A model generated the notes under the pieces. That model worked only from the letters and a program-made list of their open reading frames with translations. It did no database searches and was not told the origin of the DNA. A stretch of DNA of 64,000 nucleotides, from NCBI GenBank assembly GCA_042576225.1, contig JBHPCA010000002.1:529-64528 (forward strand), in the 5' to 3' direction. The DNA is from Candidatus Babelota bacterium. Lineage in GTDB: Bacteria > Babelota > Babeliae > Babelales > Vermiphilaceae. This document shows positions 2,553 through 33,071 of this stretch, piece by piece. Position 1 is the stretch's first letter; each line of letters starts with the position of its first letter. A program made the position numbers and the translations under genes.

Positions 2553-2587
2553 AATACCTAAAAAGATTTAAAAATACTTACGTACAT

Positions 2588-15268: not shown

Positions 15269-15291
15269 ACAAATAGTTTTAAGGTCACATA

Positions 15292-18383: not shown

Positions 18384-18395
18384 AGGATAAACTTC

Positions 18396-20171
18396 GTGCA
18401 AAAAAACAAAAACACCGAAAAAATAATTTTTAACTATGCAATCCCAGCCTTGACCATAGCCTCAATTATATTTTTAGGCTCTGCGATAAAAGATAGGTTT
18501 TCAAAAAGCATTGATCAACAAAAAACTGCCCTCTTGCAAACTAGCCAAACTGGGGACAATCTAGAAACCTTAGTCAATCTAGATTATCTTCAAAAGAAAA
18601 TAGAAATTGCAAGCGAGCTCACAAAAAATGGAGCAACCAAAAAAGCGATAGAGTATTATAAAACACTTTTACAATATGAGCGCACTTTTTCGATAATTCA
18701 TTTTAATATCGGCAAACTTTACTCAAATATAAAAAACTTCAAAAAAGCAGAGTACCATTTTAAAAAATCGATCGAACAAAGCCCCAAAAACTCAAATTCT
18801 CATACATTCTTAGGTGTAGCATTACGAAATATGGAACAATATGACGAATCAATAAAACATCTCAAAATAGCTATAAAACTTACTCCAAATTATTTTGACG
18901 CTAATCTACAACTAGGAAAAACGTATCTAGATATGGGAAAAACAATAAAAGCAATAAAATACAGTTATAAAGCAGCAAAACTATCACCAAAGAGCATATA
19001 CCCACATTTAAATATCGCTTATTCATATAACAAACAGGGAAACCTTGAGAAAGCCGTCGAAATTTATCGACAAGTCATTAAAATTGATCCTCAATGCGCC
19101 AATGCACATTACAATCTTGGCTACTCCCTAAAGATTTTAGGAAAACTAAAAGAGGCCGTTACCTTCTTGGACAAAGCAATTTCACTAAAACCCGATTATT
19201 TAGACGCTCACATTGCAAGATCACAATCTAAGATTGCATTACAAAACTTCGATGAGGGTTGGGATGAATATGAATGGCGCTGGGGATTATTCGGCATGGA
19301 TCCACATAAATACAAAGCTGGTATGTGGGACGGCTCCAACATCAAGGGCAAGACTATATTGCTAAGAACAGAACAGGGACTTGGTGACACTATGCAATTC
19401 GTACGTTTGGCAAAACAGGTAAAAGCAATGGGTGCGAAAAAAGTTATCTGTAAAGTACAAAAACCTCTAGTAAAACTGCTTTCAAACTGCGACTTTATTG
19501 ACAAAGTAATACATGATCTTGACGATGCAGGAAAGTATGATCATTATGCCCACCTTATGAGCTTACCAAGAATTTTAAAAATGCAACCTGACACCATCCC
19601 TGCAGAAATCCCATACTTCAAAGCTGATCCAAAATTGGAAAAAGAGTGGCGTGAAAAACTCCAAAAAGATAAAAACTTTAAAATTGGTATCTGCTGGCAT
19701 GTTGACCCAGTTCATGAGGAAACAAAATCGCCCTGGTCACTCCGGTCGGTCAACTTAAAACAGCTCAAGCCTTTTGCAAAACTAAAAAATGTTACCTTCT
19801 ACAGCTTACAAAAACTTCAGGATCAACAACAACTTGCACTCGTTCCTGAGGGGATGAACTTCCAACATTTCGGCCCTGATTTTGACAAGAAAAATGGTAG
19901 CTTCATGGACAGCTCAGCAATTATAAAAAGCTTAGATCTTGTTGTCACAGTTGATACCTGCGTTGCTCACCTTGCCGGCGCTTTGGGCAAAGAAGTATGG
20001 ATGCTACTTCCATATTCACCAGATTGTCGCTGGTACCTCAACACTGATAAAACTCCTTGGTATCCAACCATGACACTCTTTAGACAGGATAAACCACAAA
20101 GTTGGGATAGTGTAATAAATAAAATCGCAACATCACTTGAAAAAGAGATTAAAAAACATAAAACAACGTAA
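18396..20171 (+). CDS. TPR-repeat / GT9-like glycosyltransferase paralog 4
   Basis: GTG start and N-terminal anchor IIFNYAIPALTIASIIFLGSAI, with TPR units. Motifs: GLGDTMQFVRLAK, FKIGICWHV, YSLQK, FGPDFD..GSFMDSSAIIKSLDLVVTVDTCVAHLAGALG, CRWY, TPWYPTMTLFRQ. Confidence 0.75.
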   Translation: MQKNKNTEKIIFNYAIPALTIASIIFLGSAIKDRFSKSIDQQKTALLQTSQTGDNLETLVNLDYLQKKIEIASELTKNGATKKAIEYYKTLLQYERTFSIIHFNIGKLYSNIKNFKKAEYHFKKSIEQSPKNSNSHTFLGVALRNMEQYDESIKHLKIAIKLTPNYFDANLQLGKTYLDMGKTIKAIKYSYKAAKLSPKSIYPHLNIAYSYNKQGNLEKAVEIYRQVIKIDPQCANAHYNLGYSLKILGKLKEAVTFLDKAISLKPDYLDAHIARSQSKIALQNFDEGWDEYEWRWGLFGMDPHKYKAGMWDGSNIKGKTILLRTEQGLGDTMQFVRLAKQVKAMGAKKVICKVQKPLVKLLSNCDFIDKVIHDLDDAGKYDHYAHLMSLPRILKMQPDTIPAEIPYFKADPKLEKEWREKLQKDKNFKIGICWHVDPVHEETKSPWSLRSVNLKQLKPFAKLKNVTFYSLQKLQDQQQLALVPEGMNFQHFGPDFDKKNGSFMDSSAIIKSLDLVVTVDTCVAHLAGALGKEVWMLLPYSPDCRWYLNTDKTPWYPTMTLFRQDKPQSWDSVINKIATSLEKEIKKHKTT

Positions 20172-20206: not shown

Positions 20207-20239
20207 AAAAAAAGGCCCCGGAAATCCGGGGCCTTTTTT
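20207..20239. terminator. bidirectional intrinsic terminator between the convergent glycosyltransferase and beta-helix blocks
   Basis: Perfect 8-bp GC stem ggccccgg (20214-20221) / ccggggcc (20226-20233) with loop aaat. Flanked by an A-run (20207-20213) and a T-run (20234-20239). Confidence 0.8.
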
Positions 20240-20254: not shown

Positions 20255-21922
20255 TCATACATTTGCAACTTTGTTTTTCTCAACAACGCATTTGTTCACC
20301 GTCGTAGCCAATTTTACAATTTCCACTCGTCCAGTATCTTTCTTCTCAACCTTCGTAATCCCTGCAACAGCAACAAATTTACCACAATTTGACCATTCAT
20401 TAAAAATAGCAACATTCAGTCCATCTTTAAATTCAAAATTCGTCAAAGGCGTCAAGAATGGACTCAATAATGAATTGAACGCGTAGAGTTTATTAGAGCC
20501 AGCACTTGATGTTAACAATGTCTTGCCATCTGGTGACCAGCTTACAGCAGTTAAATTAGCATCATTGCCTGCAAAAATTTCAGTCAACGTATCTGCCGAG
20601 GCCAGATACTCATAAACCCTTGGAAGATCATTAGTGCCGGTAGCTACAATACAATATTTTTCACGGGATGCTATTGGATTCCATTTTGCCTTTGCAATGC
20701 CTGCTCCTCCTATGCTTACGCTCGCCAGACCCGTCAATGGTATAGTTTTGGCAACATGCATCATCGATGTACTTTTATCACCATACACAACAAACTTATC
20801 ATCTGGTGCTACATCAAGCATTATTAGGTCATTTGTATCACCCAATAATTTACGCTCTGCCAAAACAAGCTTTATTCCATTGAAAGACAATCTCACAAGT
20901 TTCGCCGACTCAGGGCCCCCAGCAACATTCAAATATGAGTAATTATAAGCATAATTACTCCCCCCATCACTATTACCGGTAATAACAAAATTTTTACCTT
21001 CAGTTGTCGCAAAAAGTTGCTTTCCATCATGCGACCAAGCTAACCGGAGAATCCGATCTGGTGCGCTTGTTGTACCTGCAGACGTCGGATGATTGCCAAA
21101 ATAAATTGCTTCCCCAGAAGATAGAGTAGACGCAACTTCATAAGTACGATTGCCAGGAAGAGGTGTGCCATCAAGGAACTCAGCAACTTTGGTTCCTTTA
21201 TTATCCGCCGCCCTAATCGTAGAAACTGGATTATATGCACTTACCATCTTTACACCTGTACGTACACCAGAAACCAATTTCAATGATCCACGATCAAACT
21301 TGTATACCAAAACTTCTTTATCTTTATCTGCGGTACTAACAAAGGTTATAAATTCTGAAGAAACAAGTTCATAACTTCCATCTTCTTTCCTTTTACCCTT
21401 ATAAACTTCAACCGGACCTAAATTATTTGTCCCAACGGCCAAGTACTGGCCGTCTGGTGACCATGCAACGGCATTAACCGCTCTATTGAACGAAACAGTT
21501 TGAACCTCGTAAAGTTTGGCGCCGTCAAATCTTAATATTCGCAATTTATAATCTTCTTTACCAATTGTTGAAATAGCTAAATAACTGCAATTTGGAGACC
21601 AATCAAAATCTGTTAACAATTTACCGGGTTCTGCTTGATACGCCGTTATAAACTTGGTTTTCGAAAGCTTCATGTCAAGACCAACACCCTTGCGGCAATT
21701 TGATACTCTCAAATCTTTTAAGATAACTCTTTTTGTTCCTGATTTCGACGCATCATTTTTTATAATCACATCTTCCACATTTTCGTCTATGACAACAAGT
21801 GGATCTGAGCCACTACTACCAGATGACATTATCGTTTGCCCATTCAGGTTGGAAGAAATAAAAAAATAAAAAAATATTACAAAAAATGTAAGCTTCTTAT
21901 TACACAAAAAACTTTGCTTCAT
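20255..21922 (-). CDS. truncated paralog of the beta-helix/beta-propeller family (propeller retained, helix core and C-tail missing)
   Basis: 555 aa with a signal-like N-terminus and repeated W-S-P-D/N-G/C blade motifs. Collinear with residues about 95-130 and 300-765 of the 851-aa neighbour. Stops right after VVEKNKVANV, where the paralogs continue. Could be a decaying copy. Confidence 0.6.
   Translation of the reverse strand: MKQSFLCNKKLTFFVIFFYFFISSNLNGQTIMSSGSSGSDPLVVIDENVEDVIIKNDASKSGTKRVILKDLRVSNCRKGVGLDMKLSKTKFITAYQAEPGKLLTDFDWSPNCSYLAISTIGKEDYKLRILRFDGAKLYEVQTVSFNRAVNAVAWSPDGQYLAVGTNNLGPVEVYKGKRKEDGSYELVSSEFITFVSTADKDKEVLVYKFDRGSLKLVSGVRTGVKMVSAYNPVSTIRAADNKGTKVAEFLDGTPLPGNRTYEVASTLSSGEAIYFGNHPTSAGTTSAPDRILRLAWSHDGKQLFATTEGKNFVITGNSDGGSNYAYNYSYLNVAGGPESAKLVRLSFNGIKLVLAERKLLGDTNDLIMLDVAPDDKFVVYGDKSTSMMHVAKTIPLTGLASVSIGGAGIAKAKWNPIASREKYCIVATGTNDLPRVYEYLASADTLTEIFAGNDANLTAVSWSPDGKTLLTSSAGSNKLYAFNSLLSPFLTPLTNFEFKDGLNVAIFNEWSNCGKFVAVAGITKVEKKDTGRVEIVKLATTVNKCVVEKNKVANV
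20260..21675. repeat. segmental duplication, copy 1 (pairs with 22224-23640)
   Basis: Constant offset of 1964 nt. In the 120 nt compared by eye (20521-20640 vs 22485-22604) there are 10 mismatches. Boundaries are approximate. Confidence 0.7.
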
Positions 21923-21990
21923 AATTCATCCCTTTTTTGTTTTTAATTAGACAGCTCTACTCACAGTTTACTATTCACCATGCAATCCCA

Positions 21991-24546
21991 CTACTGCACG
22001 CACCCACATTCGCAAATTGCAGGAATGCAACTGCATGGACAACCAGCGCAGCCTTCATTTGCATACAAATTATCAAGAAGGCCAGGAAAACCCATCAAAT
22101 TATATCGATGTCTTGCGTACACACCTTCACTGTATGGCACACCGCTACAACAAACCATGTTGGCATCTATCAAGTTACAACACCCACCGCCAAAGATGCC
22201 AATGCCGCAAAAACCACCGCACACATTTGCGATCTTGTTTTTCTCAACAACACACTTGTTAACCGTTGTAGCCAATTGAACAATTTCCACTTGCCCTGTA
22301 TCTTCCGCCTCAACCGTCGCAAGCCCCGCAATAGCAACAAATTTACCACAACTTGACCAACCGTTAAAAGTCGCAACATTCAGTCCATCTTGAAATTCAA
22401 AATTCGTCAAAGGCGTCAAAACTGGACTCAATGATGGATTGAACGCATAAAGCTTATTAGAACCAGCCCTTGATGTTAACAATGTCTTGCCATCAGGAGA
22501 CCAGTTTACAGCAGTCAAATTAGCATCATTGCCTGCAAAAATTTCAGTCAACGTATCTTCTGAAGCCTGGTACTCATAAACCCTTGGAAGATCATCAGTG
22601 CCGGTAGCTACAATACAATATTTTTCACAGCATGCAATTGGATTCCACTTTGCCTTTGCAATGCCTGCTCCTCCTATGCTTACGCTCGCAAGACCCGTCA
22701 ATGGTATCGTTTTAGCAATATGAATCATCGAGGTACTTTTATCACCATACATAACGAATTTATCATCTGGTGCTACATCAAGTATTATTAAATCATTCGT
22801 ATCACCCAATAATTTACGCTCTGCCAAAACAAGTTTTGTTCCATCAAAAGACAATCTCACAAGTTTTGCCGACTCATCAATAGCTGGATCAACATCCAAA
22901 TATGAGTAATCATAAGCATAATTACCCCCGCCATCAGTATTGGTAATAAGTAAATCTTTACCTTCAGTTGTCGCAAAAAGTTGCCTTCCATCATGCGACC
23001 AGGCTACCCGAAGAATCCTATCTGGTGCGTTTGTTGTACCTGCAGGTGTCGGATGGTTACCAAAATAAGTTATTTCCCCAGAAGATGGAATAGGCACAAC
23101 TACAGGAGTAAGATTACCAGGAAGAGGTGTGCCATCAAAGGACTCCAAAAGCGCAGTACCAGCATTGTCTGCTACTCTAATCGTAGAAACCGAATCATAT
23201 GCACTTACCATCTGCACACCTGTACGTGCACCAGAAACTAATTCCAATGATCCACAATCAAACTTATATACTAAAATTTCCTTATCTTTATCTGCAGTAC
23301 TAACAAAGGTTATAAATTCTAAAGAAGCAGGCCCATAACTTCCATCATCTTGTCTCTCGCTTATATACACTTCAACTGGGCCTAAATTATTTGTCCCAAC
23401 AGCCAAGTACTGGCCATCTGGGGACCATGCAACTGCATTAACCGCTCTATTGAACGAAATAGTTTGAACCTCGTAAAGTTTTACGCCGTCAAATCTTAAT
23501 ATTCGCAATTTATAGTCGTCTGTGTCAATTGTTGCAATAGCTAAATGCTTGCAATTTGGGGACCAATCTAAATCTGTTAATTTTTTACCCGGTTCTGCTT
23601 GATATGCTGTTATAAACTTGGTTTGTGAAAGCTTCATATCCAGATAAATACCATATGCATTACCCCAGCTTGCAGTCTTGATAGAATCTATGCAGCAGTT
23701 TATAATTTTTGATTCCGTTTCTGGCGTATCATCTTTGTAACCAAACCTAAAACCGGCTGCTTTTGTGCAAAAATCACTATTTACACATTTTGCAATATCT
23801 TCTACAAAACATTCATAAAACAAATTATCTAGACCCCCAAGAGAGATAAATCCATACGCACTGCCTACTTGATTAGTATTACTTACCCCTAATACTTTAC
23901 ACTGCTCAAATTTATTATATTTACAACTATCTAAATCAAAGCCAGTATATTCACAACAACATACAACTGTATCTTTGAAAATACATTTTTCTGCATAATC
24001 CAAATCAACTGCAATGCTACAAGTTTTTATGTGGCAATTTTGGACCCTACAGCAGACAACCTCACTTCCTGACTCACCTGCAAAATCAATACCTTTGTAG
24101 CAATCTGATATTCTCAAATTTTTTAAAATAACTCTTTTTGCTCCTGCTTTCAACTGTATACCAGTATCAATACAGTTCCCAACAATTGCACCATTTTTTA
24201 TAATCACATCTTCTACGTTTTCATCTATTACAACCAATGGATCTGAACTGCTACTGGATGCCGTTATCGTATGCCCATTCAGATCAATTATCACTTTATT
24301 TGCAGTAACCAAAAGCGTTGCACTTGTGATATTCTCATAGAGCCCATACGAACCATCTTTGTCTATCACATTGTTGGCAGTGTCTTTGATAATATTGTGC
24401 ACAGGATCCATAGAGTGTAACATAGCCAACAAACGACTACCATTTGTAAGATCCATACATGCCGCAGAAAAAACCCTGGAAGAAAAAGATGAAAAAAGTA
24501 GCAAGGCAAACACCATTACCCTACTATAGGGAAACTTGTACTTCAT
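21991..24546 (-). CDS. secreted Cys-rich parallel beta-helix protein with embedded beta-propeller (paralog 2, Cys-rich tail)
   Basis: 851 aa starting with the MKYKFP signal peptide. PbH1-like turns with a Cys ladder (VVCCRVQNCHIKTCSIAVDLDYAEKCIFKDTVVCCCEYTGFDLDSCKYNKFEQCKV). Blades DWSPNCKHLAIAT, VAWSPDGQYLAVGT, VAWSHDGRQLFATT, VNWSPDGKTLLTS. Returns to helix turns at NKIANVCGGFCGIGIF. Tail ends CAGCPCSCIPAICECGCVQ. Confidence 0.7.
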   Translation of the reverse strand: MKYKFPYSRVMVFALLLFSSFSSRVFSAACMDLTNGSRLLAMLHSMDPVHNIIKDTANNVIDKDGSYGLYENITSATLLVTANKVIIDLNGHTITASSSSSDPLVVIDENVEDVIIKNGAIVGNCIDTGIQLKAGAKRVILKNLRISDCYKGIDFAGESGSEVVCCRVQNCHIKTCSIAVDLDYAEKCIFKDTVVCCCEYTGFDLDSCKYNKFEQCKVLGVSNTNQVGSAYGFISLGGLDNLFYECFVEDIAKCVNSDFCTKAAGFRFGYKDDTPETESKIINCCIDSIKTASWGNAYGIYLDMKLSQTKFITAYQAEPGKKLTDLDWSPNCKHLAIATIDTDDYKLRILRFDGVKLYEVQTISFNRAVNAVAWSPDGQYLAVGTNNLGPVEVYISERQDDGSYGPASLEFITFVSTADKDKEILVYKFDCGSLELVSGARTGVQMVSAYDSVSTIRVADNAGTALLESFDGTPLPGNLTPVVVPIPSSGEITYFGNHPTPAGTTNAPDRILRVAWSHDGRQLFATTEGKDLLITNTDGGGNYAYDYSYLDVDPAIDESAKLVRLSFDGTKLVLAERKLLGDTNDLIILDVAPDDKFVMYGDKSTSMIHIAKTIPLTGLASVSIGGAGIAKAKWNPIACCEKYCIVATGTDDLPRVYEYQASEDTLTEIFAGNDANLTAVNWSPDGKTLLTSRAGSNKLYAFNPSLSPVLTPLTNFEFQDGLNVATFNGWSSCGKFVAIAGLATVEAEDTGQVEIVQLATTVNKCVVEKNKIANVCGGFCGIGIFGGGCCNLIDANMVCCSGVPYSEGVYARHRYNLMGFPGLLDNLYANEGCAGCPCSCIPAICECGCVQ
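22224..23640. repeat. segmental duplication, copy 2 (pairs with 20260-21675)
   Basis: See copy 1. Covers the propeller-coding part of the 851-aa gene. Confidence 0.7.
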
Positions 24547-24592
24547 TAGGTCTCCTTTTAATTTAAGTTATTAATATTTAAATAATTATCAA

Positions 24593-26701
24593 TTAATATG
24601 GGGGTATTGAAACGTTATAATGTAATTGATCAATGCCTACAAGACCACAATACCAAACATTGAGCACTTTTTGTGAGAAACTCAAGTCACATTCGTAACA
24701 GATATTTTTCAATATCGAGTTACAATCACTAGAGCCAAATATTCCAATACCGCCTAGACCACCAGTAACATTTGCAACTTTATTGTTATACACAACACAC
24801 TTAGTAGGAGCAATACCAACTTCAATAATATTGAAGTTAGGAATAATTGATCCATCATCGCCACCAAATACCAAGAAATTACCTGACGGAGACCAATCAA
24901 GACCGCCTTGGCTAACCTGTATACCAAGTGATTTTGAGTACACAAGAGAAATTACCGGACTTACGGATGGATCAAACTTGTATACACCAACAGTTCCATT
25001 AGTTGCAAATACTGCAAAATAGTTACCATTAGGCGCCCATTTTATTCTCAATACAGTATCATCAAAAAGCGCTGCGCCTCCAAATACCAAATCTATCCCA
25101 TCAAATGAATAAACATTTATATTTGCAGTTGCCCCAGTTCCAACAGCAACAAGATAATATTTGCCATTACATGCAATTGGACACCACTGCACATCATTTA
25201 TCCCTGTCAAACCGGTTGATGTGTCTGATGCAACTTGTACAGTTGAAAATGGTATATGCGTTTTCCAATCTCTTACAAACAAGTCTCCAGTTGCGTATGA
25301 TCCAAAGGCTATAAATTTCTCATCTGGAGTAATATCTGGATTTGTTAAATCAGTTAACCCCGTGTCAATTCCTGCACCTGAATTTGCAACATTTGTCAAA
25401 GTACCATCAACCTTGTAAACATCAATAAAAGCTCCGCCCCTGATATACACAACATATTTTCCGCTTCTAAACCAGACAGGATCGGAAACATCTACATCTG
25501 GGTTATCACCCATTATCAGCCCATAAAGCGTATCATACACAACAACTTCATCGTCTTGCCCTGAAAGCGCCCCTATAGCCAAATACCTTCCAGTAGGATC
25601 CCACTCAATATGTCGCTTGTCGTTAGAGGTGGTAGTTAAACTACTAACCTCATGCCATGTCTTACAATTAAAGTCTAATATTTTTACAGGTCCAGCACTT
25701 ATTCCCTCTGAAGCCTCACCTGAGAAAACAATCGCTATCTTATCCCCAAGGGGCGACCATGAAATATCTGCTATAGAATCTTCAAAATTACTTAATATTG
25801 CCGGGCACCCTGATGCAGGGTCTGCAATAAGTGTGCTTTTGAATACCGACTCCAGAATTATACCATACGCATTACCCAACTCTGCGCCGGTTAAAGAATC
25901 TACCAGGCAATTTATAATCTTTGACTCTGTTTCACCTGCATCCTCCCCTGTTGAGGCAAATCTAAATCCTATAGCATCTTTCCCAAATTCACTTGCTGAT
26001 TTGTAAATTCCCTCTGCCATACACTCAAAGAAAAGATTATCTTGACCACTTATGGCAGAAAAACCTACGGCCTGCTTATCTGCAAAAGAACTTCCAGTTC
26101 TAATAGCTTTACACTTTTTTATTTTGTTGTACTTGGATTTTGTAAAAACAAAGCCACCTTCTGTACAACAACAACTTTCACAATTTTCAAACACACAATT
26201 CATTGCAAAATCAATTGAAAAACCAAAAGAAGAATCTGCTACAAAACAATTTGTAACTTTACAACATCGAACATATTTATCAATTGCACCAGAAAAAGCT
26301 ATACCAGTAGAACAGTTTGCTACATTGAGATCTTGAATAACAATATTCTGCGCGCTGTCATCAATTAATACACCAGTATTAACCTGGTCGCTACCAAAAA
26401 TTGATCCATTCTGTATAACAATATTTTTTTGACCTTCACCTACATTAAACACAGAAGTCTTTGCAGCATTCCCTGATACAGTAAAACCTTTAAGGTTTAT
26501 CAAGACATTATCTGCATTAACCGTTATGTCCCCTGTTATATTTTCTATAACATGATATGAACCTGGTTCTGTGATTATCGTTGTCCCGTTTTTAATTATT
26601 TGATGCGCAGGACCAACACCAAATAGGTTTATCTGGCTTATCTGAGAAAATATCGTAGAACAAAAAGATAAAAGAAGAAGTATAGGTATTTTGTACTTCA
26701 T
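24593..26701 (-). CDS. secreted Cys-rich parallel beta-helix protein with embedded beta-propeller (paralog 3, SIPPY C-terminus)
   Basis: 702 aa starting with the MKYKIP signal peptide. Helix turns (VRCCKVTNCFVADSSFGFSIDFAMNCVFENCESCCCTEGGFVFTKSKYNKIKKCKA) and the family motif ETESKIINCLVDS. Blades ISWSPLGDKIAIV, IEWDPTGRYLAIG, IKWAPNGNYFAVF, LDWSPSGNFLVFG. Ends NKVANVTGGLGGIGIF...VSIPPY. Confidence 0.7.
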   Translation of the reverse strand: MKYKIPILLLLSFCSTIFSQISQINLFGVGPAHQIIKNGTTIITEPGSYHVIENITGDITVNADNVLINLKGFTVSGNAAKTSVFNVGEGQKNIVIQNGSIFGSDQVNTGVLIDDSAQNIVIQDLNVANCSTGIAFSGAIDKYVRCCKVTNCFVADSSFGFSIDFAMNCVFENCESCCCTEGGFVFTKSKYNKIKKCKAIRTGSSFADKQAVGFSAISGQDNLFFECMAEGIYKSASEFGKDAIGFRFASTGEDAGETESKIINCLVDSLTGAELGNAYGIILESVFKSTLIADPASGCPAILSNFEDSIADISWSPLGDKIAIVFSGEASEGISAGPVKILDFNCKTWHEVSSLTTTSNDKRHIEWDPTGRYLAIGALSGQDDEVVVYDTLYGLIMGDNPDVDVSDPVWFRSGKYVVYIRGGAFIDVYKVDGTLTNVANSGAGIDTGLTDLTNPDITPDEKFIAFGSYATGDLFVRDWKTHIPFSTVQVASDTSTGLTGINDVQWCPIACNGKYYLVAVGTGATANINVYSFDGIDLVFGGAALFDDTVLRIKWAPNGNYFAVFATNGTVGVYKFDPSVSPVISLVYSKSLGIQVSQGGLDWSPSGNFLVFGGDDGSIIPNFNIIEVGIAPTKCVVYNNKVANVTGGLGGIGIFGSSDCNSILKNICYECDLSFSQKVLNVWYCGLVGIDQLHYNVSIPPY

Positions 26702-26748
26702 TAGGTCTCCTTTTAATTAAAAGTTAGTGTTACACTATAAACTACACC

Positions 26749-29304
26749 TTAGCTGCAAAATGACGTACAGCAGAAACCTTCAAACGCCAAGTTGTCTAGT
26801 GGTCTTGGCTTGATAAACATATTTGAAACTTTCATGTCATAGAACGTGTTAAACACACCTTCACTTGCATTCACACCATTTCCTGATAGCAAGTTTTTGT
26901 CTATTAAATTGCAACAGCCTGGAGCCATGATTCCAATTGCACACAATCCACCGGAAACATTTGCAACCTTGTTGTTTTGCACCACACAGTTCATGACACA
27001 TATTCCAGCTGATATAACTTCAATGTTTGTCGAATAAAGCTGCTGAATATCGCCCGCCATAACAATAAACCTTCCGCATGGTGACCAATCTAGCCATTTA
27101 TCACCTGAAATTCGAGGGGTAGGAATATAATCTACATAAGTAAGTACCGAACTCGCAGAAAGAGAAGGATCAAAATCGTATTTAATAAGTGTTGTACCCG
27201 TTACTACAAGGCTCTTGCCGTCAGGCGCCCATTTCACATCAGTCAAATCAGCATCTATATCTTCTACAGTCAATGATGTAAGTGCATTGTTTATATAATT
27301 ATACTCAAACACTTCTAAGTTCTGAGCAGGACTCCCTGCATACCCAACCACTGCTAAATAATACTTGTCACGAGATGCGATTGGATTCCAATCTGCATTC
27401 TTAACACTGGTACCGGAAGTTAAGTTGTCAGCTAATACATCTACGGTACCGTAGAACTTTGCAAAACTAGCAATATTTAATGTATTTATCTTTTCCGACA
27501 AGCCATAAACCAATCCATTATCATCCGGCGTGAGGGCCAAAGCTTTAGAAGAATTTGTCACATCAACAACTCTATTTTCAACCAAATTCAGGTTTGCACC
27601 GTCAAATGTAAAGTTAACAAGTTTTGCTTCTTCAGTAACATCGAAATTTAAATATGTATAGACAGCATAATTAGAGGTTGTGCCTATTTGCAGATTAGTA
27701 TTGCTCGAAATAACCGTATTTTTTCCGCCCTTCGTTGTCACAAAAATATGTCTTCCATCACGAGACCAAACTATACGTAAAATATCATCTGGGGCCTTTG
27801 CCTGCCCAAGCTCAATTGGCTTATTTTGAATATATGATCCTACCTCACTAGTCTTCAAAGTCCTTATAGGGCCAGGAAGACCTGGGGTTGTAACAATAGT
27901 TGGAGTTGATATCGTAGAATAATAAGATTCAGAAAGAACCTGAGTATCTCCATCATAAATCGTAACATCATTTATACCAACATGCTCATCATCAACTAAG
28001 GTCAATAACTCAGAATCAAACCGATAAACCAAAAGTTCTTTTTTTACATTATGCAAAAAAGTCACAGTATGCAGATTGTCCACCTGCTGGCTAGAATCAG
28101 ATATCCAGGATACCCAAGCTTGTCTACTTTCAATTTCAGCAAAACCATCTGTACCAACTGCCAAGTGGTGACCATCTGGTGCCCACGCAACAGCATTAGC
28201 CGGTATGCTTACAATATCAGTAATACCTGAATCAGCAGGATTCGTAATTACCTTCAACTCAACTCTATCAACCTCTCGCAAGGTTTGGCCATCAAAATGC
28301 AAAACCCTTACTGTACCATCTGAGCACGCAATTGCGACGTAATCACCTTGTGGCGACCAATCAACATCGTTTATAACATCATCAAAAAGACCGGCTGTAA
28401 CACTTGTAAGCAAACTTGATGCTTTACCCTCCAAGTAAATACCAAACGCATTGCCAAATCCTGCACCGGCAACAGAGTCAACACAGCAATCTATAATTTT
28501 AGACTCTCTTTCTTCGACAATATTGCTCTCTGATCTGTAACCGAGCACAAAACCCATCGCTTTTGTAAACCAATCACTATCAACTTTATAGATACCCTCT
28601 GCCATACACTCATAAAACAGGTTATCCCAACCACTCAAAGCAGCAAAGCCATATGCATTAGAGTCTGCCGTATCATGCCCTATTCTTATTGCTTTACATT
28701 GTTTAAATTTATTGTACTTACAATTTTCTAAATGAAACCCATATTTACACTCGCAAACCTCACAATCTTTAAAGACACAATTGTTAGCGTAAGCCATGAA
28801 TAAACCGTAGTCGCAACCTGTTACAACACAGTTTCTAACCAAGCAACATTCAATAGGAGTTCCCTCAAAGCCACCAAGGTATATTGCTTTATCTCCGCCA
28901 TAGATCTTTAGATTCTCTAGAATTACGTTTTTTACCCCTAAATATAACTGTACACCTTCATAAGCACCGGAAGTAATTATCGTACCATTTCTTATTATGA
29001 CATTTTGATGTCCAGGCTCTATTCTTATCACATCTCTATCATGATATTCTATGGTAAATCCATTCAGTTCAACAATAACATTGTCAACATCAACCGTAAT
29101 ATTACCTATTATATTTTCTATAAGGTGATACGAACCTGGCTTTGTTATTACTGTTTCAACGCCATTTTTAATAATGGTACTCTCTGGCTGCATTGAATTC
29201 ATGAGAGACAATAACGGATTGCCTTTGTTAAAATCTAAACATGTTTTGGTAAAAACCGAAAACGTAAACAATAAAAGAAGAAGTATAGGAATTTTGTACT
29301 TCAT
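26749..29304 (-). CDS. secreted Cys-rich parallel beta-helix protein with embedded beta-propeller (paralog 4, Cys-rich tail)
   Basis: 851 aa starting with the MKYKIP signal peptide. Motifs ERESKIIDCCVDSV, VDWSPQGDYVAIACSDGTVRVLHFDG, VAWAPDGHHLAVGTDG, IVWSRDGRHIFVTTKGGK, VKWAPDGKSLVVTGT, NKVANVSGGLCAIGIM. Tail ends FEGFCCTSFCS. Confidence 0.7.
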   Translation of the reverse strand: MKYKIPILLLLLFTFSVFTKTCLDFNKGNPLLSLMNSMQPESTIIKNGVETVITKPGSYHLIENIIGNITVDVDNVIVELNGFTIEYHDRDVIRIEPGHQNVIIRNGTIITSGAYEGVQLYLGVKNVILENLKIYGGDKAIYLGGFEGTPIECCLVRNCVVTGCDYGLFMAYANNCVFKDCEVCECKYGFHLENCKYNKFKQCKAIRIGHDTADSNAYGFAALSGWDNLFYECMAEGIYKVDSDWFTKAMGFVLGYRSESNIVEERESKIIDCCVDSVAGAGFGNAFGIYLEGKASSLLTSVTAGLFDDVINDVDWSPQGDYVAIACSDGTVRVLHFDGQTLREVDRVELKVITNPADSGITDIVSIPANAVAWAPDGHHLAVGTDGFAEIESRQAWVSWISDSSQQVDNLHTVTFLHNVKKELLVYRFDSELLTLVDDEHVGINDVTIYDGDTQVLSESYYSTISTPTIVTTPGLPGPIRTLKTSEVGSYIQNKPIELGQAKAPDDILRIVWSRDGRHIFVTTKGGKNTVISSNTNLQIGTTSNYAVYTYLNFDVTEEAKLVNFTFDGANLNLVENRVVDVTNSSKALALTPDDNGLVYGLSEKINTLNIASFAKFYGTVDVLADNLTSGTSVKNADWNPIASRDKYYLAVVGYAGSPAQNLEVFEYNYINNALTSLTVEDIDADLTDVKWAPDGKSLVVTGTTLIKYDFDPSLSASSVLTYVDYIPTPRISGDKWLDWSPCGRFIVMAGDIQQLYSTNIEVISAGICVMNCVVQNNKVANVSGGLCAIGIMAPGCCNLIDKNLLSGNGVNASEGVFNTFYDMKVSNMFIKPRPLDNLAFEGFCCTSFCS

Positions 29305-29393
29305 TAGGTCTCCTTTTAATTAAAAGTTAGTATTGCATCATAAATCACACAAAACTATACACTACTACAAAATGCTCGCACAGTACTAAATTC

Positions 29394-31910
29394 TTAGTAT
29401 GGAGGAATTGACCAGTTACCTAAAATACTGTGCTTGCCTGCCAAGCCTTTATAGAATACGTTGTACACACCTTCTGTAAAGTTGACACAATTTTCATACG
29501 CAACATTTCTTGTAATGCAATTACAACATGATGCACCCATTATGCCGATTGAGCAAAGGCCACCAGTTGCATTTGCAACTTTATTACTATCAACAAGACA
29601 ACACTTCACGCTGTCGCCAACCTCTAGTACCTCAACATTCAAAACATCTTGCGTATTTTCTCCTGCAATAACAATATATTTGCCACACTCACCCCAATCA
29701 ATGTATTTTGCCCCTGCAATTTGAGTATCGTACACAAAAGTACTTTCCAATGTACCCGTCACACCTGCAACACTAAAACTAAATACACCCACCTCGTTTG
29801 TTGGACCTGTACCTGTAACAACTAAATCTTTACCACTTGGCGCCCATTTTACTGAGGTCAACATACTGTCAAATACTTGTGCAACAAGTGATGTTACGGT
29901 TGTACCACCTTTGTACTGGAACACTTCTAGGTTAGAACCATCTAATACACCTGCAACTGCCAACAGATAATTATCACAGCATGCAATAGGATTCCAATCT
30001 ACACTATCTACCAATGTATTTGAACTTGCATTATCAACAACCATAGTCCCAAATGAATCTGCTAGTATTTCATCTATGCGCAACTTATTAGCATTTTCAG
30101 ATACCCCATAAGAAATATATTTGTCATCCGGCGAAACGGCCAATGCCTTTGACGCATTAGTAGAGTCTAAAACTTTGTACTTTTTGGCCTTTATTGTGCT
30201 ACCATCAAATGAGAAACTCACAATTTTTGCTTGCTCAGTGAAGCTAAAATTTAAATAAGCATAGTTAATATAATAACCTATAATATCTTCCCAATCAGTA
30301 TTTCCTGATACACTCGTAGTTTTTCCGCCTTTTGTTGTAACAAAAATATTTCTTCCGTCACGAGACCAAACTATACGTAAAACATCATCTGACGCCTTCA
30401 CATTATCAATTTTAAATGGCCAATTGCCATACCAAACCAAATCAAAAGGATTAGGATCAGGCATACCTCTTACAGGACCAGGGAGACCTTGCGGAAACAT
30501 GATGCTTGGATAGGGACCCGATGCAATATTTCCTCCTCCTTCAGACCAGGTCTTTGTTGTGCCATCATAAATTCTTTTAATTTCATTTAATCCAACATAC
30601 TCATCATCCACAAGCGCTAGTGAGCCACAATCAAACTTATAAACCAAAAGCTCCTTTTTTACATCATTCAAAAAATTAATCTCGTGAGTTGAGTTTACTT
30701 GATCAACCTCTAGTTCCCGATACCCCACATTAACTGTAACTCCCTCCAAAACAACAGCTTCACCATCTGTTCCAACTGCTAAGTATTGTGCATCGGGAGA
30801 CCAAGCAACGGCGTTAACCGGTCTATCAAATAATGTATCACTCGCAACCAGGCTTAGGGAAGTACCGTCAAACCTTAAAACTCTTACAGAATTGTCATTA
30901 CATGCTATTGCAATGTGTTTACAATCTGGGGATATATCCATATCTTTTATATTTTCATCAAACAAACCTGTCGTTACCGAAGATAGAGAATCTAGCATAC
31001 GAGTATCTAATTTGATGCCGATTGCGTTTGCCCAACTTGTACTGGAAACAGAATCTACCAAACAATTTATAATTTTTGATTCTCTTTCTGTTCCAGTAAG
31101 CAAGAACCCAATTGCTTTGGTACACCAATCACTGTCATACCCACCTTTGTAAATATGTTCTGCAAAACACTCAAAAAACAAGTTGTCTACACCACTTTCA
31201 GATACATAACCAAGAGCCATTTTTGTCGGATCATCACTACCCACATCAACAGCTATACAATGCTTAAACTTGTTATACATACAATATTGCAAATCAAAAC
31301 CTGCTTCTTGGCAAAAACATACTTCACAATCTTTGAAGACAGATCTCTTAACGTAGGTAAGCTCATATGCTTTGACACAACTTGTGGTAAAACAGTTATC
31401 AACTTTAGAACATTTTATCTCTTGGCCTTTTTCACCCGCAAAATTCATACTATTTTGCAAGTTTGAAAGATACAAGTCTTGCAAAAATATTCCACTTGTG
31501 CCTTTGTCAACTAAGACACCGTCATTAGTTGTATCACCAACAATGGAACCATTGTGAATTAAAATATTTCTCTGACCTTCACTTACCATAATTAAAGAGC
31601 TAGTAGAACCTGAAACGGTAAAGCCATTCAGATTGATAATAACATCACTTGCGTTAATTAAAATATTGCCATCAATATTTTCAAGCACTTGGTAAGAACC
31701 AGGCTCTGTAATATTTGTAGCAGCACCATCTTTAATAATCTGTTGAGCCGGATACATAGACTTCAACATGGTTAAAATGCCACCGTTAGTTAAATCTATG
31801 CACGTATTTGGAGATTGTGAAAATATCGCAATGGGTGTTAATATGGGTGTTAATAAAAGAAGAAGTGTTGCCAAAATCGGCACTCCCTTACGCAAGGACT
31901 TGTACTTCAT
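29394..31910 (-). CDS. secreted Cys-rich parallel beta-helix protein with embedded beta-propeller (paralog 5, SIPPY C-terminus)
   Basis: 838 aa with signal peptide MKYKSLRKGVPILATLLLLL. Motifs ERESKIINCLVDSV, MDISPDCKHIAIACNDNSVRVLRFDG, VAWSPDAQYLAVGTDG, IVWSRDGRNIFVTTKGGK, VKWAPSGKDLVVTGT, NKVANATGGLCSIGIM. Ends WSIPPY. Confidence 0.7.
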   Translation of the reverse strand: MKYKSLRKGVPILATLLLLLTPILTPIAIFSQSPNTCIDLTNGGILTMLKSMYPAQQIIKDGAATNITEPGSYQVLENIDGNILINASDVIINLNGFTVSGSTSSLIMVSEGQRNILIHNGSIVGDTTNDGVLVDKGTSGIFLQDLYLSNLQNSMNFAGEKGQEIKCSKVDNCFTTSCVKAYELTYVKRSVFKDCEVCFCQEAGFDLQYCMYNKFKHCIAVDVGSDDPTKMALGYVSESGVDNLFFECFAEHIYKGGYDSDWCTKAIGFLLTGTERESKIINCLVDSVSSTSWANAIGIKLDTRMLDSLSSVTTGLFDENIKDMDISPDCKHIAIACNDNSVRVLRFDGTSLSLVASDTLFDRPVNAVAWSPDAQYLAVGTDGEAVVLEGVTVNVGYRELEVDQVNSTHEINFLNDVKKELLVYKFDCGSLALVDDEYVGLNEIKRIYDGTTKTWSEGGGNIASGPYPSIMFPQGLPGPVRGMPDPNPFDLVWYGNWPFKIDNVKASDDVLRIVWSRDGRNIFVTTKGGKTTSVSGNTDWEDIIGYYINYAYLNFSFTEQAKIVSFSFDGSTIKAKKYKVLDSTNASKALAVSPDDKYISYGVSENANKLRIDEILADSFGTMVVDNASSNTLVDSVDWNPIACCDNYLLAVAGVLDGSNLEVFQYKGGTTVTSLVAQVFDSMLTSVKWAPSGKDLVVTGTGPTNEVGVFSFSVAGVTGTLESTFVYDTQIAGAKYIDWGECGKYIVIAGENTQDVLNVEVLEVGDSVKCCLVDSNKVANATGGLCSIGIMGASCCNCITRNVAYENCVNFTEGVYNVFYKGLAGKHSILGNWSIPPY

Positions 31911-32016
31911 TAGATCTCCTTTTAATTAGAAAATTAGTGTTTAGCTTAACTTACACAAAAATATACAATACTTTACATTACTAGGTTTAGGGTACACAAG
32001 TTAAAATAAAAAATCA

Positions 32017-32110
32017 ACCCTCCGGCATCCCCCTTCGCTCGTTCCGAGCTACGGAGGACAAGAGCTCAGGGCAGGTTCCTTCTGCCCAAAGTTCTCGCAT
32101 TGTTAAACCT
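32017..32110. repeat. GC-rich dispersed repeat element, copy B, in the divergent intergenic region
   Basis: cccttcgctcgttccgagctacggaggacaa (32031-32061) matches ccccctacgctctttcagagctacggaggacaa (63516-63548). The inner hairpin gctcG-ttc-Cgagc versus gctcT-ttc-Agagc shows a compensatory pair change. Followed by the hairpin gggcag-gttcctt-ctgccc. Confidence 0.45.
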
Positions 32111-32348
32111 CGATACGCCTGACTTTGTCCTTTATCAAGCTCACAACTATGCCAGACTACTCAGGACTATTTCTAACCGTCCTATCACGCATATTAATTC
32201 AAAGTTCCAGAAAAGGCGAAATAAATCCTTTACTCTTTTGAAAATTTTTAGTAGAAATTATTGGAATTAACTATTTGAACTCAAAAAGAAAGGAAAATTG
32301 CAAAAGAATAATAAACCATTTTAACCACTTTTACCCAAAGGAGATAAC

Positions 32349-33071
32349 ATGAAGTACACAAATAAAATAATTGCATTATCCGTGCTGTGTGCAATATACG
32401 CACAGACATCTTTTAGTTGCGACGAATGCGATAGAATAAAACAACAATATGATAATCCACCAAGCTCTATTGAACAACCAAAAGGCTGTTCCTGCTCACA
32501 ACCAAAACCCCCAAAACCAAAAAGTGAAGATGAAGAGAAAGGCTGCTCTTGTTCTCAACCAAAACCCCCAAGACCAAAAAGCGAAGATGAAGAAAAGGGC
32601 TGCTCCTGCTCACAACCAAAACCACCAAGACCAAAGGGATGCTCCTGCTCGCAACCAAAACCACCCCGCCCAAAAGACGACTCAAAAGTAACCGCTGAGA
32701 TCGCAGTTGGTGAGTTAGTAGACAAGATTACCATCTTGCAAATCAAATCAGAGAATATCAAAGATACAGCAAAGCTAGAAAATATTCATAGAGAGCTTGA
32801 GGCACTTGGTGAAACATTAGACGAACGTGTAGAGAAATCTCCTGAGCTTGAGGACCTTGCAACCAAACTTCTTGTAATTAACAAGCAACTTTGGGATATA
32901 GAGGACGACATCAGAGACAAAGAACGTGCCAAAGAATTCGATACCGAATTTATTCAACTAGCTCGAAGCGTTTACTACACAAATGATGAAAGATGCGCTG
33001 TAAAAAGAAAAATCAATGATCTTACAGGATCGAGACTTCAAGAAGAAAAATCTTATAAAGATTATAAGTAG
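32349..33071 (+). CDS. secreted protein: Cys/Pro/Lys tandem repeats plus C-terminal DUF6165-like domain
   Basis: Signal peptide MKYTNKIIALSVLCAIYAQTS and four KGCSCSQPKPP(K/R)PK repeats. The C-terminal 120 aa (GELVDKITILQIK...INKQLWDIEDDIR...LARSVYYTNDER...EEKSY) looks like the DUF6165 family as I recall it. Confidence 0.7.
   Translation: MKYTNKIIALSVLCAIYAQTSFSCDECDRIKQQYDNPPSSIEQPKGCSCSQPKPPKPKSEDEEKGCSCSQPKPPRPKSEDEEKGCSCSQPKPPRPKGCSCSQPKPPRPKDDSKVTAEIAVGELVDKITILQIKSENIKDTAKLENIHRELEALGETLDERVEKSPELEDLATKLLVINKQLWDIEDDIRDKERAKEFDTEFIQLARSVYYTNDERCAVKRKINDLTGSRLQEEKSYKDYK
32481..32675 (+). repeat. in-frame tandem repeat (two 57-nt units, then two 39-nt units)
   Basis: Encodes KGCSCSQPKPPKPKSEDEE, KGCSCSQPKPPRPKSEDEE, KGCSCSQPKPPRP and KGCSCSQPKPPRP. 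The units differ mostly at synonymous sites. Confidence 0.85.

Follow-up and report, generated by a model that had tools for sequence, protein, structure and literature searches.

What kind of proteins are encoded by five adjacent, similar genes on the minus strand of a 64,000-nt stretch of Candidatus Babelota DNA (contig JBHPCA010000002.1, positions 529 to 64,528; hereafter, the window), and what might they do for the bacterium? The original prediction, made from the letters alone, saw in them secreted, Cys-rich paralogues in which a beta-propeller interrupts a beta-helix, an architecture that it could not assign to a characterised family.

The five-gene array

The ORF listing of the window bears out the five consecutive genes exactly, in coordinates and in size:

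20255..21922, minus strand: Paralog A, 555 aa; propeller-only derivative of Paralog B
21991..24546, minus strand: Paralog B, 851 aa; 38 Cys; very Cys-rich tail
24593..26701, minus strand: Paralog C, 702 aa; family-typical size; minimal propeller of ~330 aa; C-terminus ...NVSIPPY
26749..29304, minus strand: Paralog D, 851 aa; copy used for the structure model; Cys-rich tail ...FCCTSFCS
29394..31910, minus strand: Paralog E, 838 aa; signal peptide, beta-helix, seven-bladed WD40 insert and final helix rungs; C-terminus ...NWSIPPY

Their paralogy is far beyond chance: Paralog D matches Paralogs E and C with E-values of 7.7e-194 and 3.9e-97, respectively, and Paralog A is 78% identical to the neighbouring Paralog B. 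A six-frame search with module HMMs found no further copy in the window. Paralog A has acquired a new hydrophobic N-terminus, has lost the helix core by an internal deletion of ~440 nt and is truncated at NKVANV. Because this ORF lacks the helix core and anything beyond NKVANV, the array consists of four helix-propeller-helix proteins and one propeller-only derivative, the latter still under purifying selection (dN/dS of ~0.31 against Paralog B).

Most sequence features that had been ascribed to all five proteins hold for the four long copies, and only some of them extend to Paralog A. Four of the five proteins start with MKYK, and all have a hydrophobic N-terminal segment and blade motifs of the WSPDG type. 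The motif E(T/R)ESKII(N/D)C occurs in the four long copies; all five share the helix-return motif C.V..NK(V/I)AN, but its continuation GG...IGI is seen only in the long ones. These are indeed Cys-rich (4.5, 3.1, 2.8 and 3.0% Cys), which Paralog A (1.1%) is not, and the Cys-ladder string originally quoted is found in Paralog D. The excursion from the helix had been put at 350-450 aa; outside Paralog C, with its shorter propeller, it spans ~440-465 aa. The C-terminal tails are of two types, ending in ...NISxPPY or carrying a Cys-rich ...CC.. stretch.

A seven-bladed propeller inserted in a beta-helix

All five proteins exceed the cut-offs of the Pfam profiles WD40 and ANAPC4_WD40, and scores for NosD, Beta_helix and PbH1 lie at or near cut-off; the top PDB sequence match of the propeller is a bacterial WD40 protein of Nostoc (2ymu). 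The AlphaFold2 model of full-length Paralog D (pLDDT 78.3, pTM 0.77) recovers both domains, and these values argue for helix and propeller being held in a fixed two-domain arrangement in the predicted structure. With Foldseek, the whole model retrieves seven-bladed WD40 propellers at TM scores up to 0.81 (WDR61, beta'-COP, Cdc20). The domains of Paralog D are:

28417..29154, minus strand: N-terminal beta-helix, aa 51-296; pLDDT mostly >90; Cys/Asn ladder
27007..28395, minus strand: WD40 insert, aa 304-766; seven blades of the WxP(D/N)G type, blades 2 and 3 being separated by an elaboration of ~130 aa
26869..26997, minus strand: helix return, aa 770-812, C.V..NKVANV.GGLC.IGI...N.I..N; last one to two rungs

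When the propeller is deleted from the construct, one single helix is predicted (pTM 0.80; block-mean pLDDT of the C-terminal rungs 56-78), which Foldseek matches to right-handed beta-helix proteins with a probability of 1.0. The resemblance to tailspike depolymerases, AlgE4, PL6, GH28 and the adhesin PfbA is at the generic-fold level only (E 1e-5 to 1e-3, TM 0.3-0.55, 9-14% identity), and the solved proteins concerned are nearly all enzymes. Eleven helix modules of metagenomic relatives run directly into the C-terminal rungs, with no propeller in between; in the five multi-module proteins inspected, 2-6 residues separate the two. Since relatives have contiguous flanks and the propeller-deleted construct folds as one helix, the propeller is a true insertion; it occupies the loop that joins the third-last rung to the second-last, leaving two rungs of helix after it. 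The long copies consist of a signal peptide, a right-handed parallel beta-helix, a seven-bladed WD40 propeller, two more rungs and a short tail, so that the predicted architecture stands for these four and not for Paralog A.

The family, its leader cassette and its gene neighbours

The helix-propeller-helix proteins form a real, large and uncharacterised family, known so far from Dependentiae only. It comprises 676 cluster representatives at E<=1e-30, and all members that can be placed taxonomically belong to Dependentiae/Babeliales. The suspicion that it was not a characterised family proved right: NCBI names are generic, Pfam, NCBIfam and PHROG contain no family that covers these proteins, and our literature search found no paper describing them. 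Paralog D is named NosD at NCBI, and the Pfam NosD profile does reach 26.7 bits (cut-off 23.6) over its helix rungs. We rejected that identity: TIGR04247 (NosD_copper_fam) scores 12.4 bits against a cut-off of 300, matching only Paralog B, and the genomic context is not that of a nos operon. All that the name conveys is that the proteins have the PbH1 fold in common.

Giant proteins in which two to five concatenated modules follow a single signal peptide occur among the relatives, some of them with coiled-coil-like SKIDxxxSKVD linkers and Cys-rich ends. They are new findings, as are a family-specific promoter/leader cassette and the recurrent pairing with arrays of TPR and GT9-like genes. Close relatives occur in arrays of two to five copies, with fragments, in all eight independent loci. 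Sequence divergence between paralogues is greatest in the propeller (27-48% identity); helix and final rungs retain 37-48% and 47-58%, respectively.

The cassette and what is left of it in the spacers are located as follows:

31911..32017, minus strand: family-specific promoter-like motif, 5' leader and Shine-Dalgarno site
29305..29393, minus strand: E-D spacer, 89 nt; last 63 nt of the leader and Shine-Dalgarno retained, without the TTGATT motif
26702..26748, minus strand: D-C spacer, 47 nt; last ~31 nt of the leader retained, including Shine-Dalgarno
24547..24592, minus strand: C-B spacer, 46 nt; only the Shine-Dalgarno-proximal part of the leader retained, AATTAAAAGGAGACCTA
20208..20239, minus strand: strong hairpin terminator; 14 pairs, 8 G-C, then a T run

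The promoter-like motif, TTGATTTTTTATTTTAACTTGTGTAC (31992-32017), occurs once in the window (none expected by chance), and the leader ends in ...AATTAAAAGGAGATCTA. In each of the 11 metagenome matches to the motif, a start codon follows 96-102 nt downstream, and all 10 testable downstream ORFs encode family members. Paralog E, the first gene of the array, is the sole copy with the full cassette upstream. As this cassette is found only there in the window, the five genes probably form one operon; the hairpin, 16 nt past the stop codon of Paralog A, separates the array from the TPR genes that converge on it.

Two neighbours are associated context, not family members:

13121..20171, plus strand: four tandem TPR paralogues whose C-terminal domain is GT9-like; signal peptide or membrane anchor present
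32349..33071, plus strand: gene divergent from the array; exported product with a DUF6165 domain and repeats rich in Cys and Pro

The pairing with TPR and GT9-like genes is repeated in five other loci, and the same DUF6165-domain gene also adjoins the array in loci L001 and L010. A gene for an exported ankyrin protein is likewise among the neighbours.

Possible roles and known systems

A signal-peptide-like N-terminus was called in 86 of the 92 N-terminally complete members by a crude test of hydrophobicity and charge, and from such features Sec export of the family is predicted. As a group, Dependentiae are very rich in signal peptides (PMC6561590). Profile searches and direct reading of the N-termini detected no autotransporter barrel, canonical lipobox or known sorting signal that might anchor the proteins in the envelope. 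The surface or host-contact role originally suggested is plausible, with a surface fibre or adhesin as our favoured guess. The rigid, right-handed, cysteine-stabilised helix would be its stalk or scaffold, the propeller, predicted on the side of the helix, its diversifying, ligand-binding head, and the short C-terminal tail may tether the protein via disulfides. Tandem duplication, module loss and propeller divergence would give rise to a set of binding specificities, and a single conserved cassette of promoter and leader, dedicated to the family, would express this set, here probably as a five-gene operon. That these are Sec-exported, fibre- or adhesin-type proteins of the envelope or extracellular space of an intracellular protist parasite is the best explanation as a whole, which we put forward tentatively, as possible and somewhat short of probable. 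Both the failure to recognise an anchor and the predominance of enzymes among the solved proteins that resemble the helix count against it.

Alternatively, the proteins could be effectors secreted into the host cell, with the helix as carrier, a propeller that mimics or hijacks host WD40-dependent complexes and Cys-rich C-termini that are possibly lipidated by the host. A large part of the Dependentiae proteome is exported, and eukaryote-type ankyrin, WD40, TPR and F-box domains are regarded as tools of host manipulation (PMC4776705; PMC6561590); exported ankyrin and TPR proteins are encoded nearby, and some tails end in -CC or -C.C. We nevertheless consider this unlikely: the propeller, with its bacterial WSPDG-type blades, resembles the Nostoc protein best and no specific eukaryotic family, the Cys tails do not conform consistently to CaaX or Rab motifs, ...PPY being the C-terminus of many members, the Cys-laddered helix and the giant forms with their coiled-coil-like linkers look structural, and a translocation system or signal was not identified.

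The solved structures whose fold comes nearest to the helix (Klebsiella-phage capsule depolymerases, AlgE4 epimerase, PL6 lyases, GH28, GH87) might instead suggest glycan-active enzymes (depolymerase, lyase, hydrolase or epimerase) that degrade or remodel host or envelope polysaccharide in a catalytic helix groove, the propeller binding substrate or regulating. Glycosyltransferase-like genes at the loci of close relatives fit this, and acidic and basic residues are conserved over 196 modules: N228, E265 and K269, the conserved polar residues, inside the GNLF.EC and E.ESKI motifs, could form an active site instead of belonging to the scaffold. Yet the fold matches are generic, no CAZy-type Pfam or NCBIfam family is significant, the conserved positions are mostly Gly, Phe, Asn, Cys and Ile at rung-periodic sites, as structural residues would be, and variable tandem arrays and giant concatenated forms are atypical of enzymes, which makes this reading improbable. 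Just as doubtful is a structural coat, stiffened in the infectious form by disulfide cross-links, as is the cysteine-rich outer membrane complex of chlamydiae, and made from a stage-specific promoter; the Cys content and tails of the long copies, the strong conserved Shine-Dalgarno site, the dedicated cassette and the high copy number speak for it, but many family members have few tail cysteines, and propeller divergence and copy turnover point to recognition. It also overlaps with the fibre or adhesin explanation and does not exclude it.

Compared with known systems, the N-terminal ~250 aa and last ~40 aa share the fold of right-handed beta-helix proteins (tailspike depolymerases 9k4a and 7w1c, AlgE4 A-module 2pyh, PL6, GH28, pneumococcal adhesin PfbA), which are secreted or surface-located and to which the weak PbH1, NosD and Beta_helix matches correspond. 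The array proteins differ in having a conserved Cys ladder and no family-level sequence relationship or recognised catalytic motif. To our knowledge, a whole seven-bladed propeller between two rungs has not been described for this fold, and a literature search for such an insertion found nothing. With bacterial WD40 propellers (2ymu of Nostoc punctiforme, PkwA of Thermomonospora, 5yzv), the array shares WSPDG-type blades above Pfam cut-offs and the seven-bladed fold; in contrast, its propeller is predicted to be exported, is nested inside another domain and has the extra ~130 aa between blades 2 and 3 in three paralogues and the 555-aa derivative.

Chlamydial polymorphic membrane proteins, beta-helical autotransporter adhesins, are likewise exported, cysteine-rich paralogue families of an obligate intracellular bacterium. 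They carry a C-terminal beta-barrel translocator and GGA(I/L/V) or FxxN repeats, all absent from the array, they lack its inserted propeller, and no sequence relationship to them or to other beta-helical autotransporter adhesins was detected. In TibC-TibA and AAH-AIDA-I, a GT9-related heptosyltransferase is encoded beside the beta-helical adhesin that it glycosylates. Genes with a GT9-type nucleotide-sugar-binding motif adjoin beta-helix genes in six of the seven examined loci of close relatives; BAHT enzymes are cytoplasmic, whereas these neighbours have TPR repeats together with a signal peptide or membrane anchor, and the matching motif covers only ~30 residues. A search of IMG/VR with the family motifs found no relatives. 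Structurally, the helix is matched best, ahead of all PDB entries, by right-handed beta-helix domain proteins of Klosneuvirinae (Barrevirus A0A3G4ZPJ9, Harvfovirus, Hyperionvirus, Edafosvirus; E 1.4e-9), giant viruses that likewise parasitise protists; identity is only 13-15%, the likeness is one of structure, and a propeller insert is not reported for these proteins.

Five tandem paralogs with a WD40 propeller, in four of them with a beta-helix

The five consecutive minus-strand ORFs of the original prediction were matched exactly by the ORF listing of the window. We call them paralogs A to E, where E is the first gene of the array and A the last.

20255-21922, minus strand: paralog A, ORF of 555 aa
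21991-24546, minus strand: paralog B, ORF of 851 aa
24593-26701, minus strand: paralog C, ORF of 702 aa
26749-29304, minus strand: paralog D, ORF of 851 aa
29394-31910, minus strand: paralog E, ORF of 838 aa

Their paralogy is borne out by pairwise comparison: D and E are 45% identical (E-value 7.7e-194), D matches C with an E-value of 3.9e-97, and A is 78% identical to B. Paralogs B to E are the four copies announced to start with MKYK, with a hydrophobic stretch next, unlike paralog A, the N-terminus of which reads MKQSFLCNKKLTFFVIFFYFF; the motifs originally quoted all occur in the array proteins. Cysteine makes up 4.5, 3.1, 2.8 and 3.0% of B, C, D and E, respectively, and 1.1% of A. A lipoprotein reading was rejected, as direct reading found no canonical lipobox before the conserved Cys that follows the signal peptide. 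Identical proteins are in NCBI, on a 65-kb contig of “Candidatus Dependentiae bacterium”, with no names more specific than “NosD domain-containing” and “WD40 repeat domain-containing”. A six-frame scan with HMMs of the protein modules found no sixth copy in the window, the remainder of which is ordinary bacterial chromosome (YidC, MurC-like ligase, TrmD, Ffh, HflX, UvrD, a TrpRS/TyrRS-type synthetase, PNPase, tRNAs).

Profile matches to the N-terminal third (NosD, Beta_helix, PbH1 repeat) lie at or just under the cut-offs. Paralog D reaches 26.7 bits with NosD (cut-off 23.6) and 19.5 bits with TIGR03804 (cut-off 19.45); NosD or Beta_helix is below threshold in two other paralogs and absent from the 838-aa copy (E), and in NCBIfam, the PbH1 repeat alone passes a cut-off, borderline. 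The AlphaFold2 model of D (pLDDT 78.3, pTM 0.77), predicted from an alignment of 13 family members, displays short-strand rungs over residues 51-300, the propeller over residues 305-770, short strands again over residues 774-807 (block-mean pLDDT 62-85) and a disordered Cys-rich tail (residues 809-851). The predicted beta-helix stands, with a pLDDT mostly above 90 in the helix region and Foldseek matches to many beta-helix structures with a probability of 1.0. Overall, the helix is structurally most similar to beta-helix proteins from giant viruses of the Klosneuvirinae (E-value 1.4e-9, 13% identity), a likeness that may serve as a lead and is not evidence of homology. Across 196 helix modules, the conserved positions are mostly rung-periodic G, F, N, C or I; N228, C233, E265 and K269, within the motifs GNLF.EC and E.ESKI, are also conserved, in at least 86%.

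Several known families were considered and rejected. TIGR04247, for the NosD copper chaperone, matched the 21991-24546 paralog only, at 12.4 bits (cut-off 300), and the genes beside the array (TPR, DUF6165, ankyrin, UvrD) do not form a nos operon context. As for type V autotransporters or Pmp adhesins, there is neither an autotransporter Pfam match nor a C-terminal beta-barrel translocator; after the propeller, only some 40-80 aa remain, of which the last ~40 are predicted to be disordered. Two proteins tested against PHROG for phage tailspikes or tail fibres gave no match at E<=0.01.

The propeller, predicted as WD40/PD40-type, is confirmed by WD40 profiles above the Pfam cut-offs in all five proteins: PF00400 scores 47.2, 44.6, 27.7, 44.4 and 36.4 bits (cut-off 27) and PF12894 (ANAPC4_WD40) 34-48 bits (cut-off 22.9). 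Seven blade motifs of the WxP(D/N)G type can be read per copy, and Foldseek of the whole D model returned 7-bladed WD40 propellers (WDR61 with a TM score of 0.81; beta'-COP and Cdc20 with 0.7-0.8), where the TM scores for WDR61 and beta'-COP (0.79-0.81) are target-normalised. A sequence search of the PDB with a profile of 13 family members retrieved WD40 proteins only, the bacterial 2ymu at the top. In B, D and E, blades 2 and 3 are separated by some 130 additional residues, modelled as long hairpins. The PD40 signal is secondary to WD40: 27.0 bits against a cut-off of 20.9 in the 555-aa copy, 20.9 (the cut-off itself) in the 21991-24546 paralog and none in the other three. Membership of the TolB/PD40 periplasmic propellers was rejected, with TIGR02800 at 34.5 bits (cut-off 343) and PD40 above its cut-off in A only. 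Between paralogs, propeller identity is 27-48% and that of the helix parts 37-58%; the propeller diversifies faster than the rest of the protein.

Paralog A departs from the original prediction: it is indeed one of five paralogs, but its helix core is missing. DNA comparison identifies it as a modified copy of B with a new N-terminus, two short helix remnants and a deletion of ~440 nt that takes out the helix core; the likeness to B stops at the stop codon after NKVANV, and A has neither the conserved leader nor the Shine-Dalgarno site present in the other paralogs. An intact frame of 555 codons and a dN/dS of 0.31-0.35 against B (at dS 0.32-0.35) speak against a dead pseudogene (dN/dS ~0.31), and A looks like a maintained propeller-only derivative.

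Insertion of the propeller and the modular family

We built HMMs for the N-terminal beta-helix (H), the propeller (P) and the C-terminal helix rungs (C-module; C in the architecture strings) and scanned 158 relatives. The single-unit architecture H-P-C occurs in 36 proteins, while giant relatives consist of units in series (e.g., P0014, HPCHPCHPC). Several giants include propeller-less H-C units (e.g., P0017, HCHCHCHCHPC), and there are 11 helix modules with the C-terminal rungs directly after. Where examined (P0017, P0020, P0050), the gap between H and C-module is 2-6 residues, with the junction '...SATAYGIYIGSTVSTCLIDSNKACNTIGNATGIFGD...'; because these units are contiguous to within 2-6 residues, the insert lies exactly between the strands 'A(Y/F)GI.L' and 'C.V..NK(V/I).N'.

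A deletion construct of D (residues 38-303 joined to 768-851), modelled with an alignment of four window paralogs, keeps the strand pattern of the rungs across the junction, where block-mean pLDDT is 56-78 (pTM 0.80). Its Foldseek matches are right-handed beta-helices (E-values of 1e-5 to 1e-3), among them Klebsiella-phage depolymerases, AlgE4, PL6, GH28, GH87 and PfbA. The third line of evidence is weak local similarity: by pairwise BLAST, the C-terminal rungs of paralogs C and D match 'CQVIENKVVNNG...GGIDVGG' of a helix-only paralog in the metagenomic locus L003 with E-values of 0.18-0.28. MAFFT did not cleanly align the C-terminal rungs of the window proteins with the L003 helix-only paralogs; since that alignment was unclean and the BLAST matches weak, we relied on the architecture scan with module HMMs.

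By these three lines, the propeller is truly inserted in the helix. The helix-propeller-helix order of the original prediction holds in the D model, where the chain leaves the rungs for the propeller and then forms short strands, and in relatives in which the flanks are contiguous. That the C-terminal rungs would, in three dimensions, stack onto the N-terminal helix is our inference from the models. In propellers, the N- and C-terminus lie close to each other, a geometry that suits insertion into a loop.

The extent of the family depended on the search: a word-indexed search found 13 relatives only, while an exhaustive profile search returned 676 cluster representatives at E<=1e-30, weaker matches being partly plain WD40 proteins. 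Many of the 676 match end to end, over ~700-770 aa. The conserved end of the unit reads 'F(S/N).G(I/V)FN...GL.G.P..(L/I)(D/E)N(I/L)S(V/I)PPY'; paralogs C and E terminate at PPY, while B, D and the giants of locus L008 extend into Cys-rich tails, which in the latter end in ...FCCCN or ...NCFCN. By a simple test of charge and hydrophobicity, 86 of the 92 members with a complete N-terminus begin like a signal peptide.

L008, 1-25880: tandem genes for giants of ~2,000-2,900 aa with three to five helix or helix-propeller modules each

Each giant has a single signal peptide and a bacterial Shine-Dalgarno site, and some feature coiled-coil-like 'SKID...SKVD' linkers. The possibility that they are merged gene calls was dismissed, as there are no internal signal peptides or stops. 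Assembly gaps split two gene pairs in L008.

All taxonomically labelled members are from Dependentiae. The most distant relative, P0013, is on a contig assigned to Babeliales by its MetRS, which shares 74% identity with a named protein of Babeliales. The GTDB species representatives yielded no relative by protein-motif or promoter-motif scan, and the lineage appears to be missing from that set; the broader alignment was too divergent to yield motif patterns for a database scan. Among IMG/VR viral contigs, the family motifs retrieved no relative. Near P0013, itself a helix-propeller protein, L003 carries four helix-only paralogs (1150-6528), one of which is 56% identical to the first 200 aa of P0013. 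In the array of L005, a 172-aa ORF (7220-7738) is by eye an N-terminal family fragment with signal peptide and helix cap. The L005 fragment and the L003 paralogs point to genes being gained and lost rapidly.

Putative promoter cassette, probable operon and neighbouring genes

Tandem arrays of two to five close relatives were present at every locus fetched (L001/2, L005/6, L007, L008, L009, L010, L011/12). Upstream of array genes lies a non-coding cassette, a GC-rich hairpin followed by TTGATTTTTTATTTTAAGTTGTGTACCCTGAATTTAGTATTGTATA...AATTAAAAGGAGACCTA and then ATGAAGTACAAA, with a DNA identity between loci of 72-75%, against only 35-50% for the proteins of these loci. On our interpretation of the sequence, it could be read as TTGATT, 17 nt, TA...T, with a possible second TTGTGT-18-TATA(A/T)T just downstream. 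The 26-nt motif occurs once in the window (31992-32017, minus strand), 107 nt before the ATG of paralog E; none is expected by chance. In JGI metagenomes, each of the 11 motif matches precedes a start codon by 96-102 nt and the testable ORFs downstream were family members in 10 out of 10 cases, the breadth of this evidence being limited, as all 11 matches come from one sample. No consensus RNA structure was predicted for the 5′ leader, no Rfam family matched upstream of the array, and tracts of homopolymer or short repeats, which might hint at phase variation, are absent. Remnants of the leader persist before D (the last 63 nt) and C (the last ~31 nt; by eye also before B).

20208-20239, minus strand: strong hairpin terminator, after paralog A

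The array spacers measure 46-89 nt and contain no convincing terminator, and a scan for consensus promoters and terminators stayed at chance level but for the one at 20208-20239. From the spacers and the strong terminator after A, the five genes therefore probably constitute one operon.

The region upstream of the array promoter (32018-32260, minus strand) is non-coding, with a G+C content of 45-62% (window mean 37%), and ends with a CCTCCG...CGGAGG hairpin, after which a T run reaches into the TTGATT motif. Its folding is somewhat better than that of shuffled sequence (z = -2.3). Rfam gave no match for it, and no gene lies upstream on its strand; it may be a small RNA or a terminator left from a lost paralog. 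A GC-rich segment of 34 nt within it (32028-32061) recurs with 91% identity at 63515-63548, near a tRNA cluster (63.5 kb), and may be a dispersed terminator-like repeat. A 32-nt element, TAATTTCTACTAAAAATTTTCAAAAGAGTAAA (32229-32260), is 90% conserved in L001 (7303-7334) and L010 (3499-3530), in all three cases in the divergent intergenic region beside the array; it might serve the DUF6165 or TPR genes as promoter or operator.

13121-20171, plus strand: four tandem paralogs with TPR and GT9-like regions (715, 515, 533 and 591 aa), convergent with the array
32349-33071, plus strand: DUF6165 gene, exported protein of 240 aa with tandem 'GCSCSQPKPPRPK' Cys/Pro repeats, then DUF6165

The four convergent genes all encode TPR-repeat proteins with a signal peptide or membrane anchor and with a C-terminal domain that matches the nucleotide-sugar-binding motif of Glyco_transf_9. 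PF01075 matched all 10 such C-terminal domains from five loci, over the same ~30 residues only (E-values of 1e-5 to 2e-3). Exported Leloir-type glycosyltransferase-like proteins are unusual. For the gene at 16782-18383 (plus strand), the mechanical TTG start lies 58 nt inside the previous gene; more likely, the true start is at MKRPYAFLSLFIF..., which resembles a signal peptide and lies 18 codons downstream. Arrays of one to five TPR and GT9-like genes also flank the helix-propeller arrays in L001/2, L007, L009, L010 and L011/12, such that GT9-like neighbours occur in six of the seven close-relative loci examined; L005/6 has two GT2 genes in their place. Orthologs are 35-53% identical. This recurring neighbourhood could reflect inherited gene order within one clade or a functional link. 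The divergent DUF6165 gene occurs in three loci (the window, L001, L010), and its DUF6165 domain is 76% identical to that of the L001 gene in the same position. We found no literature mention of DUF6165, nor any that unites TPR, GT9 and protein glycosylation.

Two further genes of the window are of note. One (33265-34707, plus strand) encodes an ankyrin-repeat protein of 480 aa that begins with a signal peptide, as is typical for candidate effectors of Dependentiae. A 350-aa protein (39309-40361, plus strand) carries a C-terminal MYND zinc finger (PF01753, E-value 1.3e-12), a domain that is, to our knowledge, otherwise essentially eukaryotic.

Possible function and comparison with known systems

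Neither fold is unusual, but as far as we found, no description exists of an architecture that places a whole WD40 propeller between two parallel beta-helix rungs. In accordance with the original view that this is not a characterised family, no Pfam, NCBIfam or PHROG family and no paper was found for it, nor did we find a paper that joins Dependentiae and beta-helix. The nested architecture is well supported and unusual; it, the modular family, the promoter cassette and the TPR-GT9-like link are not described in the libraries and literature searched. The function of the family is one that we infer, and the array settles no long-standing question.

Tentatively, the array proteins are exported proteins of the fibre or adhesin type. 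The Cys-laddered helix would then be a rigid stalk and the propeller a binding head displayed laterally, while tandem duplication would furnish a repertoire expressed from a dedicated promoter. That they are instead effectors in the host cytosol seems unlikely to us. We hold it to be rather improbable that they are glycan-active enzymes. The likeness to PL or GH28-type enzymes is at the level of the fold only, and Pect-lyase_RHGA_epim stays below its cut-off of 27 with 18.1 bits; on the other side, polar residues of the helix are conserved, and they may or may not lie in a groove. Coat proteins cross-linked by disulfides, a proposal that overlaps with that of fibres or adhesins, are likewise rather improbable.

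The propeller-less modules available for comparison make the family a clean natural case of domain insertion into a solenoid. It is large, with rapid gene gain and loss, so far restricted to Dependentiae, and equipped with predicted export signals and its own putative promoter and conserved leader. It is plausibly a concrete candidate for surface or host-contact machinery in a phylum of which attachment, uptake and host range are little known, and the 26-nt promoter motif provides a practical handle on regulon and regulator.

A joint reading, which we consider quite improbable, would make the helix-propeller arrays, the exported TPR-GT9-like arrays and the DUF6165 gene one conserved Dependentiae system: the TPR repeats would recruit the helix proteins and the GT9-like domains glycosylate them, resulting in a glycosylated fibre coat under a dedicated and possibly stage-specific promoter that baits or binds phagotrophic hosts. 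In TibC/TibA and AAH/AIDA-I, GT9-related heptosyltransferases reportedly glycosylate adjacent beta-helical adhesins. Those enzymes are cytoplasmic, whereas the TPR-GT9-like proteins look exported by their signal peptides; the function would, thus, be alike but exerted outside the cytoplasm or in the host, and the coat would act like the glycosylated fibrils of giant viruses.
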